From Escherichia coli (GTDB lineage: Bacteria; Pseudomonadota; Gammaproteobacteria; Enterobacterales; Enterobacteriaceae): a stretch of 26,414 nucleotides of DNA. The DNA lies in the NCBI RefSeq assembly GCF_003334815.1, contig NZ_QOWO01000047.1, one strand, 5' to 3'. Position numbers: made by a program. Positions 12,001 to 15,000 of this stretch are shown in pieces (the first letter of the stretch is position 1; each line of letters starts with the position of its first letter).

Positions 12001-15000
12001 TGCCGTCAGCGACTGTTACAAGCCATTAAGCTGGCAACAAGCTTTCGACGAAATTGGCGCACGCCTTCAAAGCTATAGTGATCCCAATCAGGTTGAATTC
12101 TATACTTCGGGCCGCACTTCCAATGAAGCTGCCTTTCTTTATCAGCTTTTTGCCCGTGAATACGGGAGCAATAACTTTCCCGACTGCTCCAACATGTGCC
12201 ATGAACCGACAAGCGTGGGTTTGGCAGCGAGTATCGGTGTAGGTAAAGGGACCGTGTTGCTGGAAGACTTTGAGAAGTGCGATTTAGTCATTTGCATTGG
12301 GCATAACCCTGGTACAAACCACCCTCGCATGCTGACTTCGTTGCGCGCTTTAGTGAAACGGGGAGCGAAAATGATCGCCATCAATCCTCTACAGGAACGT
12401 GGCCTGGAGCGATTTACCGCACCGCAAAACCCGTTTGAAATGCTGACGAACTCTGAGACTCAGTTGGCCAGTGCCTACTATAACGTGCGCATTGGTGGCG
12501 ATATGGCGTTGCTCAAGGGGATGATGCGCCTGTTAATTGAGCGCGATGATGCTGCAAGCGCCGCAGGTCGGCCTTCATTGCTTGATGACGAGTTTATTCA
12601 AACGCATACCGTCGGCTTTGACGAGCTACGCCGTGACGTTCTCAATTCCGAGTGGAAAGATATCGAACGTATTTCTGGACTAAGTCAGACACAAATCGCC
12701 GAACTGGCTGACGCATATGCCGCTGCCGAACGCACCATTATCTGTTACGGAATGGGGATCACTCAGCACGAACATGGTACCCAGAACGTACAGCAACTGG
12801 TCAATCTGCTGTTGATGAAAGGTAACATTGGCAAGCCTGGTGCGGGTATCTGCCCACTACGTGGACACTCTAATGTACAGGGCGACCGAACCGTCGGTAT
12901 CACCGAGAAACCGTCTGCAGAGTTTCTGGCTCGTCTGGGTGAGCGCTATGGCTTCACCCCACCTCATGCACCTGGACATGCTGCAATTGCCAGCATGCAA
13001 GCAATATGTACGGGGCAGGCTCGAGCATTGATCTGCATGGGGGGCAATTTTGCGCTGGCAATGCCAGATCGGGAAGCGAGCGCTGTACCGTTAACGCAAT
13101 TAGATTTGGCGGTACACGTAGCCACTAAGCTTAACCGCTCTCATCTGTTGACCGCACGGCATAGCTATATTCTGCCGGTCCTGGGACGTAGCGAGATTGA
13201 CATGCAAAAAAACGGTGCGCAGGCGGTAACCGTTGAGGATTCAATGTCGATGATTCATGCCTCGCGTGGCGTGTTAAAACCCGCCGGTGTAATGCTGAAA
13301 TCAGAGTGTGCAGTGGTCGCGGGAATCGCGCAGGCAGCACTACCCCAGAGCGTGGTAGCCTGGGAGTATCTGGTGGAAGATTATGATCGCATTCGCAATG
13401 ACATTGAAGCTGTGCTGCCAGAGTTCGCCGACTATAACCAGCGCATCCGTCATCCCGGTGGTTTTCACCTGATAAATGCAGCTGCTGAAAGGCGCTGGAT
13501 GACGCCGTCAGGTAAGGCTAATTTCATTACCAGCAAAGGGCTGTTAGAAGATCCCTCTTCAGCGTTTAACAGTAAGCTGGTCATGGCGACAGTACGCAGC
13601 CACGATCAGTACAACACGACGATTTATGGTATGGATGATCGCTATCGAGGGGTATTCGGTCAACGAGATGTGGTCTTTATGAGTGCTAAACAAGCTAAAA
13701 TTTGCCGTGTAAAAAACGGCGAAAGAGTTAATCTTATTGCGCTTACGCCAGACGGTAAGCGCAGCTCACGCCGCATGGATAGATTAAAAGTGGTCATTTA
13801 CCCTATGGCTGACCGCTCACTGGTGACCTATTTTCCAGAATCGAATCACATGCTAACACTTGATAACCACGATCCATTAAGTGGCATTCCTGGCTATAAA
13901 AGTATTCCGGTTGAATTAGAACCATCAAATTAATGCCTCTTCTCATTTCTTCTGCTGTCATCCGCACAGCAGAAGAATTCCTCATTGACTATTATTTCGC
14001 AATTTGCTCACATGGATTAAATTAAACTACATACTATAAGATATAAACTTCTGCCTACAGCTGTAAGAAACTCCGCTCAGTACTGAAGCACCAGTCCTAT
14101 TTCCTCTTTTCTCCAGCCTGTTATATTAAGCATACTGATTAACGATTTTTAACGTTATCCGCTAAATAAACATATTTGAAATGCATGCGACCACAGTGAA
14201 AAACAAAATCACGCAAAGAGACAACTATAAAGAAATCATGTCTGCAATTGTGGTTGTCTAATTACTGACACTTACGTTGATAGCCATTTTTTCGGCAATT
14301 GATCAGCTGAGTATTTCAGAAATGGGTCGCATTGCAAGAGATCTTACACATTTCATTATCAATAGTTTGCAAGGCTGAAAACAAACAGCAAATTATAAAT
14401 ATGAAATGTTAAAAAAGTATCGATAAAAACTTTATTGTTTTAAGGAGATAAAATGTCGCTCGTTTGTTCTGTTATATTTATTCATCATGCCTTCAACGCT
14501 AACATTTTAGATAAAGATTACGCCTTCTCTGACGGCGAGATCCTGATGGTAGATAACGCTGTTCGTACGCATTTTGAACCTTATGAGCGGCATTTTAAAG
14601 AGATCGGATTTACTGAAAATACCATTAAAAAATATCTACAATGCACTAACATCCAGACAGTGACGGTGCCTGTTCCTGCGAAGTTTTTACGTGCTTCAAA
14701 TGTACCGACTGGATTGCTTAATGAAATGATTGCTTATCTCAACTCGGAAGAACGCAATCATCATAATTTTTCAGAACTTTTGCTTTTTTCTTGCCTGTCT
14801 ATTTTTGCCGCATGCAAAGGTTTCATTACACTATTAACTAACGGTGTGCTATCCGTTTCTGGGAAAGTGAGAAATATTGTCAACATGAAGCTGGCGCACC
14901 CATGGAAGCTGAAAGATATTTGTGACTGCCTGTACATCAGTGAAAGCCTGTTGAAGAAAAAACTTAAGCAAGAGCAAACGACATTCTCACAGATTCTTTT

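Follow-up and report, generated by a model that had tools for sequence, protein, structure and literature searches.

The ydeP-safA-ydeO region

The window – the whole 26,414-nucleotide stretch of an Escherichia coli contig (NZ_QOWO01000047.1) analysed here – carries ydeP, safA and ydeO in the order known from K-12, and the regulatory region upstream of safA is identical to that of K-12 base for base (Table 1). The first gene, ydeP, is an EvgA-regulated acid-resistance gene whose product is listed under one and the same protein accession for K-12 and for strain 52F4. A pattern search, based on a consensus that we take to be that of the EvgA box, returned three EvgA-box-like matches in the window against 0.36 expected: one lies upstream of ydeP, and another – the inverted repeat TGCCTACAGCTGTAAGAA – lies upstream of safA. 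The YdeO protein encoded in the window is very common, being indexed in 36,901 blocks of public assemblies. It is safA, between these two intact genes, that is broken.

Table 1. Coordinates of genes and sites in the ydeP-safA-ydeO region (positions in the window).
Feature	Position	Strand	Remarks
EvgA-box-like site	11393-11410		upstream of ydeP; pattern search
ydeP	11654..13933	+	intact
EvgA-box-like inverted repeat	14052..14069	+	upstream of safA; 1 mismatch (pattern search)
safA pseudogene	14181..14378	+	65 codons plus native stop, broken at codon 27 (translation)
Still-translated part of safA	14181..14258	+	26 residues: cytoplasmic N-terminus and first 8 hydrophobic residues
Premature stop TAA	14259..14261	+	changed base 14260: A here, T in K-12
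Orphaned 3' part of safA, codons 28-65	14262..14375	+	remaining transmembrane segment and periplasmic region
safA codons 41-65	14301-14375	+	PhoQ-activating periplasmic region (role from PMC8534201); after the stop
Shine-Dalgarno AAGGAG of ydeO	14442-14447	+	5 nt from the ATG
ydeO	14453..15214	+	intact, 253 aa; downstream gene of the operon
Terminator-like hairpin with T-run	15262..15294	+	after ydeO; the only such site on the + strand in 13934-15300

A single substitution splits the safA reading frame

Translation of the window from the ATG at 14181-14183 gives the 26 residues MHATTVKNKITQRDNYKEIMSAIVVV, a TAA, and then, in the same frame, LLTLTLIAIFSAIDQLSISEMGRIARDLTHFIINSLQG up to the native TGA at 14376-14378. 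The uninterrupted frame of about 65 codons that belongs to this type II membrane protein is thus split, and the list of open reading frames for the region holds only a 26-aa frame (14181..14261) and a mechanical 33-aa frame beginning at a TTG (14277..14378). Comparison base by base with safA of K-12 shows 197 of 198 positions to be identical: the sole difference is at 14260, where the TTA of Leu27 has become TAA, and no second lesion is present in the 198 bases. The codons for residues 41 to 65 are present and unchanged relative to K-12, but lie 3' of the stop. Since safA is compared here against a reference gene, chance is not at issue.

Restoring Leu27 gives a product identical to K-12 SafA (WP_000543384.1, "two-component system connector SafA"), which matches the Pfam family PF17073 (SafA) over positions 1-64 of 66, with E = 2.8e-47 and a score of 159. 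A model for SafA is absent from NCBIfam, where the restored product has a single match, to SecE, which falls below the cutoff and is owed to the hydrophobic segment. That segment spans residues ~19-40 of intact SafA, with Kyte-Doolittle means over 19 residues reaching 2.93. The K-12 gene (B1500), which has TTA at codon 27 and encodes the connector from EvgS/EvgA to PhoQ/PhoP, occupies the same place between ydeP and ydeO and has the same upstream region. The product in the window comprises the first 26 residues only, and is without the anchor and the PhoQ-activating tail. By its descent and its context this is the safA locus – on sequence grounds the identity of the gene is certain – yet it encodes no SafA protein.

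Most of what the earlier note had said of the locus is borne out by these comparisons. The TAA at codon 27, in a frame that runs on to the TGA, is seen both in the sequence and in its translation; the suggested single-base change of TTA to TAA is the T-to-A difference from K-12; and the reference SafA is indeed a 65-aa protein spanning the stop, according both to the K-12 annotation and to the Pfam match. The placement of the stop in the middle of the transmembrane segment needs adjusting: the TAA does lie inside the hydrophobic residues, but it follows the eighth of about 22, that is, roughly one third of the way into the segment rather than at its exact middle.

The possibility that the substitution creates a new promoter inside safA was considered and rejected. 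The change converts TCTTAT to TCTAAT, which agrees with five of the six bases of the -10 hexamer; the best pairing of -35 and -10 elements scores 7/12 in mutant and wild type alike, and there is no extended -10.

The TAA allele is rare and recent

The distribution of the allele was determined among 5,426 complete E. coli genomes, with a query of 398 bases around the site. This matched safA/ydeO in 5,376 genomes; the other 50 have no match to the 398-bp safA locus at all. The TAA allele was found in one of the 5,426: strain 52F4 (NZ_CM147848.1), isolated from a calf in Switzerland. No other complete genome matches the window at 100%, whether across the 398 bases or across a 69-mer with the stop at its centre (the 69-mer was aligned by megablast in just 2,913 genomes). 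For each of the two other major safA haplotypes a 69-mer with TAA was constructed and searched in the same way; exact matches were absent among the 575 and 3,460 aligned genomes, respectively. For metagenomes, carriers of the allele were sought by means of a 24-mer marker, AATTGTGGTTGTCTAATTACTGAC, chosen to avoid flanking polymorphisms: the scan recovered no contig with TAA, as against 66 with TTA.

Together these searches yielded 76 other loci for inspection. All have T at position 14260, and in 72 the safA frame is full and intact; of the remaining four, one has a stop at codon 64, one a gap of 7 bases, one is only partially aligned, and one is truncated at its 5' end beside a Tn3-family element. 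A convergent nonsense change at codon 27 was seen in none of the 76, where other lesions are sporadic. Intact SafA of 65 aa is likewise encoded in nine of ten loci shown for the identical YdeO protein.

The allele was already known as a database annotation: PGAP lists safA of 52F4 (locus AC0BNW_RS04820) as a pseudogene with an internal stop. In the literature searched, no report of a safA nonsense allele in E. coli was found, the sole match being the unrelated saf fimbrial gene of Salmonella, and strain 52F4 was not mentioned. The pseudogene of 52F4 carries the identical TAA and the same local haplotype as the window. Over the 19 kb that the two share there are four SNPs, and the DNA upstream of position 7381 is entirely different: here the window resembles K-12 in having hipBA and an autotransporter gene, a segment absent from 52F4. 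Unlike the window, 52F4 has a further nonsense codon (yddA E67*) and the replacement ydeO L19I; the window, unlike 52F4, has the private changes hipA A358E, ydeT L67F and ydeN A144V. On this evidence the window and 52F4 come from different strains. The six lineage-private changes of the region are all (6/6) non-synonymous or nonsense.

Over 26.2 kb the window departs from K-12 MG1655 by 11 substitutions and two indels of one base each, with no difference between positions 10976 and 14259. The best matches to the whole window among the 5,426 complete RefSeq genomes are 99.9% identical, and none is identical; the junction between IS1 and the autotransporter gene at 176/177 is contiguous in no complete genome. 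There are several unrelated loci with just two differences from the window in 4 kb, and between 9000 and 20000 the rare alleles of the window are the TAA, common to 52F4, and one private SNP at 16046, with no others. The TAA is thus a mutation of recent date, carried on the most frequent local haplotype. Because it is the only rare allele in this interval common to the window and 52F4, common descent is a more parsimonious account of its presence in both strains than recurrence. The claim that this is a recent rather than an ancient pseudogene also holds, given the lack of a second lesion, the common haplotype, and the single other complete genome with the allele. In all probability, then, a genuine and recent loss-of-function allele of safA is at hand, produced by a single T-to-A change; loss of PhoQ activation would be its consequence.

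Predicted consequences for EvgS-PhoQ signalling

SafA is a type II membrane protein of 65 aa with a periplasmic C-terminus, and its C-terminal 25 periplasmic residues contact the sensor domain of PhoQ and suffice for activation (PMC8534201). Binding of this region to the sensor domain stimulates autophosphorylation. According to the mechanism that we propose, the T-to-A transversion at 14260, by turning the TTA of Leu27 into an ochre TAA inside the transmembrane segment, would stop translation from the ATG at 14181 after 26 residues; the resulting fragment, with 8 of about 22 hydrophobic residues and no PhoQ-binding periplasmic region, should be unable to take up the type II membrane topology or to activate PhoQ. 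Activation of EvgS/EvgA – in mild acid, for instance – would then no longer stimulate PhoQ/PhoP, while the responses of PhoQ to its own signals (low Mg2+, antimicrobial peptides) and the EvgA-YdeO-GadE branch of acid resistance would be kept. Judged from published work on SafA, loss of the link from EvgS/EvgA to PhoQ/PhoP is expected, because the 26-residue product is without most of the anchor and without the C-terminal region that activates PhoQ.

Engineered deletions offer the nearest guide to phenotype. Once safA is deleted, MG1655 no longer induces the PhoP-dependent promoter PmgrB in acid, but its exponential-phase acid resistance is unchanged in the standard assay (PMC5706723); in a strain with constitutive EvgS the deletion abolishes heat cross-resistance (PMC9769608). 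The same phenotype would be expected of the strain from which the window derives, with PhoP targets induced neither by acid nor through EvgS and with EvgS-driven heat cross-resistance lost. The MG1655 deletions are, however, engineered and in-frame, whereas the gene in the window still has its 5' 78 bases translated and leaves 117 nt untranslated.

A natural counterpart is strain MP1, which has lost 13 kb including safA-ydeO (Roggiani et al. 2017; PMC5706723). Like the source strain of the window – for which this is a prediction – MP1 is a natural isolate in which the link from EvgS to PhoQ is cut, and it shows that the network differs among wild E. coli; unlike MP1, where both branches are gone, the window has a point mutation that strikes SafA alone, and ydeO is intact. 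Provided that the base call is correct, the source strain should no longer pass acid signals from EvgS on to PhoQ/PhoP. This bears on any study of acid stress, or of signalling by Mg2+ or antimicrobial peptides, that employs the strain, and on annotation, in which safA should be marked as a pseudogene.

Expression of ydeO

A nonsense codon in the first gene of an operon may also bear on the second. EvgA drives safA and ydeO as a single operon (PMC5706723; also a preprint); no consensus promoter was found between them, and ydeO therefore depends on the promoter of safA. With the stop at codon 27 an additional 117 nt of operon mRNA (14262-14378) goes without translation in front of the intergenic spacer of 74 nt, so that the untranslated stretch before ydeO grows from 74 to 191 nt. 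Were the early release of ribosomes to let Rho end the transcript, or RNases break it down, ahead of ydeO, polarity would be strong, and the strain would lose both branches, SafA-PhoQ and YdeO-GadE. Several properties of the exposed RNA speak against such an outcome. Of its 191 nucleotides (14262-14452) 26 are C and 32 are G, the ratio of C to G lying between 0.42 and 1.11 – about one or lower – in every 78-nt segment, and structure prediction finds the RNA more strongly folded than shuffled controls (z = -2.4). Being both C-poor and structured, it should be a poor substrate for Rho and a poor rut site. There is, moreover, no terminator between safA and ydeO – no intrinsic terminator occurs before 15262 – and because ydeO has a strong AAGGAG site of its own, its translation should not be coupled to that of safA. 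Strong polarity is in our view unlikely. Some drop in ydeO mRNA as a result of the stop is plausible; an effect on the expression of ydeO, as suggested in the earlier note, is possible but weakly supported, strong polarity not being predicted for a C-poor, structured RNA followed by a gene with its own Shine-Dalgarno sequence.

Possible selection on the allele

If SafA alone is lost and YdeO is kept, the allele would separate two functions of the Evg network, and it is conceivable that it is no neutral or slightly harmful accident but has been favored by selection for this reason: PhoQ/PhoP would be uncoupled from EvgS/EvgA in a lineage or niche, such as cattle, with YdeO retained. Natural rewiring of the network is documented – MP1 is without safA-ydeO, and in many isolates EvgS is blind to pH (PMC5706723) – and the allele has persisted in two diverged strains, the sole carrier with metadata having come from a calf. 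Its rarity argues the other way (one carrier among 5,426 complete genomes, none among 66 metagenome contigs), as does the absence of convergent nonsense changes at codon 27 among loci in which other lesions are sporadic (4 of 76). That all six lineage-private changes are non-synonymous or nonsense is, in addition, the pattern of young mutations that have not yet been purged, and the sample is too small for a test of selection. We regard an adaptive origin as distinctly unlikely. The more specific proposal – a selected separation-of-function variant, with the PhoQ/PhoP arm off and YdeO-GadE kept, in a small and possibly cattle-associated lineage in which cross-activation of PhoQ is costly – is very unlikely, although if it were true the strain would be a natural, ready-made tool with which to separate the two branches.

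The safA allele is rather an ordinary, rare and recent strain-level pseudogene of a well-studied small protein. Occasional loss of safA is unsurprising, because its deletion spares exponential-phase acid resistance in the standard assay (PMC5706723). The allele is a further, minor instance of the natural variation already described for the Evg network (PMC5706723) and has little reach beyond the strain; it opens no long-standing question and will not surprise specialists.

Unlikely alternatives: sequencing error or bypass of the stop

A sequencing or assembly error, with T as the true base at 14260 and an intact safA, might be suspected from the occurrence of A in just one other public complete genome and from the second nonsense codon close by in that genome (yddA E67*), a possible hint of a noisy assembly. 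Nevertheless, an error in one assembly cannot explain the TAA, because two different strains carry A at this position: the same base stands in two assemblies that are set apart by four further differences in 19 kb, together with a large divergent segment upstream. The mutation is a substitution with no homopolymer around it, and no recognition motif of Dam, Dcm or EcoKI was seen at 14260 (the context being judged by eye). A systematic error caused by the context should furthermore show up again in the ~1,277 other genomes with 99% identity or more over the 398 bp, yet all of these differ from the window by at least one base in that stretch. An error is thus extremely unlikely: judged from the two assemblies, which could in principle stem from the same study or pipeline, the TAA is a real allele.

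Partial survival of the SafA link through a leaky or bypassed stop – by readthrough, an ochre suppressor tRNA or translational restart – is very unlikely as well, though readthrough or restart at a low level is conceivable. An in-frame TTG (14277, 16 nt after the stop) and an in-frame ATG (14322) do follow, and the periplasmic region on its own is reported to be enough to activate PhoQ once it is in the periplasm (PMC8534201); but neither codon is preceded by a Shine-Dalgarno sequence (the best similar cores are of 3 nt), and the products of restart, 33 and 18 aa in length, would retain no more than eight hydrophobic residues and lack a signal sequence, for which reason they are predicted to remain cytoplasmic, away from the sensor domain of PhoQ. 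The 33-aa product of the TTG frame is recorded by no gene caller in the public collection, and no tRNA gene is present in the window; evgAS, phoPQ and any suppressor tRNA lie elsewhere in the genome. The premature stop is itself followed by T, and TAAT ranks with the stop signals that end translation most efficiently in E. coli.

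Changes private to the window and 52F4

A comparison of the window with strain 52F4 (NZ_CM147848.1), the only one of 5,426 complete E. coli genomes with the safA TAA allele, yielded six private changes, all of them non-synonymous or nonsense and four of them transversions. Four are listed in the table; the remaining two are safA L27* and hipA A358E. The pattern fits very young mutations that selection has yet to filter, a set of six being too small for a test.

The hipA substitution – HipA being a toxin kinase associated with persistence – changes codon 358 (7035-7037) from GCA in K-12 to GAA in the window, the SNP lying at 7036. 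The 69-mer surrounding it has no full-length exact match in 5,426 complete genomes: the single match at an identity of at least 99% appears, from coverage counts, to be a partial alignment.

At several further sites, namely 14892 and the three YddB and PqqL positions of the table, the window and 52F4 agree with each other and K-12 has another base. Since the ydeO allele of the window is very common in public assemblies (36,901 indexed blocks), the K-12 allele at codon 147 may be the less common one.

Features of the window, of 52F4 and of other public safA loci
Carrier	Feature	Position	Description
Window	ECSE_1600-family autotransporter gene	167-3964 and 3925-5475	split into two overlapping ORFs
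Window	ydeT	8259	L67F
Window	ydeN	16046	A144V
52F4	ydeO	equivalent of window 14507	L19I
52F4	yddA	equivalent of window 18996	E67*
K-12 vs window and 52F4	ydeO codon 147	14892	YdeO P147 versus L147; window L147
K-12 vs window and 52F4	yddB, pqqL	22021, 23164, 23492	YddB I501V; PqqL L72R, F181L
52F4	replacement DNA	L004:1-8380	HNH and restriction endonuclease genes, SDR oxidoreductase, IS30/IS3 remnants, hypothetical genes
L014	safA	L014:2798-2926 and upstream	truncated 5', beside Tn3-family transposase/resolvase and chemoreceptor gene
L031	safA		stop at codon 64
L044	safA		7-base gap; metagenome contig, low coverage
L062	safA		partial alignment only

Flanks of the ydeT-ydeP-safA region

In 52F4 (locus L004) other DNA stands in place of the hipBA/autotransporter segment (window 1-7380), which marks this side of the ydeT-ydeP-safA region as a variable junction. 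The window itself begins inside IS1, the end of which covers 1-176 and is inserted into the 5' end of the autotransporter gene; in K-12, by contrast, the sequence up to the 176/177 junction is unrelated, and as one contiguous piece this junction was found in no complete genome. The autotransporter gene has two G bases fewer than the MG1655 copy used for comparison, a copy that is itself annotated as frameshifted.

The ydeQ-ydeP intergenic region contains an EvgA-box-like inverted repeat, AGCCTACACCTGTAAGAA (11393-11410), with two mismatches to the consensus used; its presence is consistent with regulation of ydeP by EvgA.

Other safA lesions

Public data also contain safA lesions unrelated to L27*, found at loci (L014, L031, L044 and L062) among the 76 gathered for comparison with the window.
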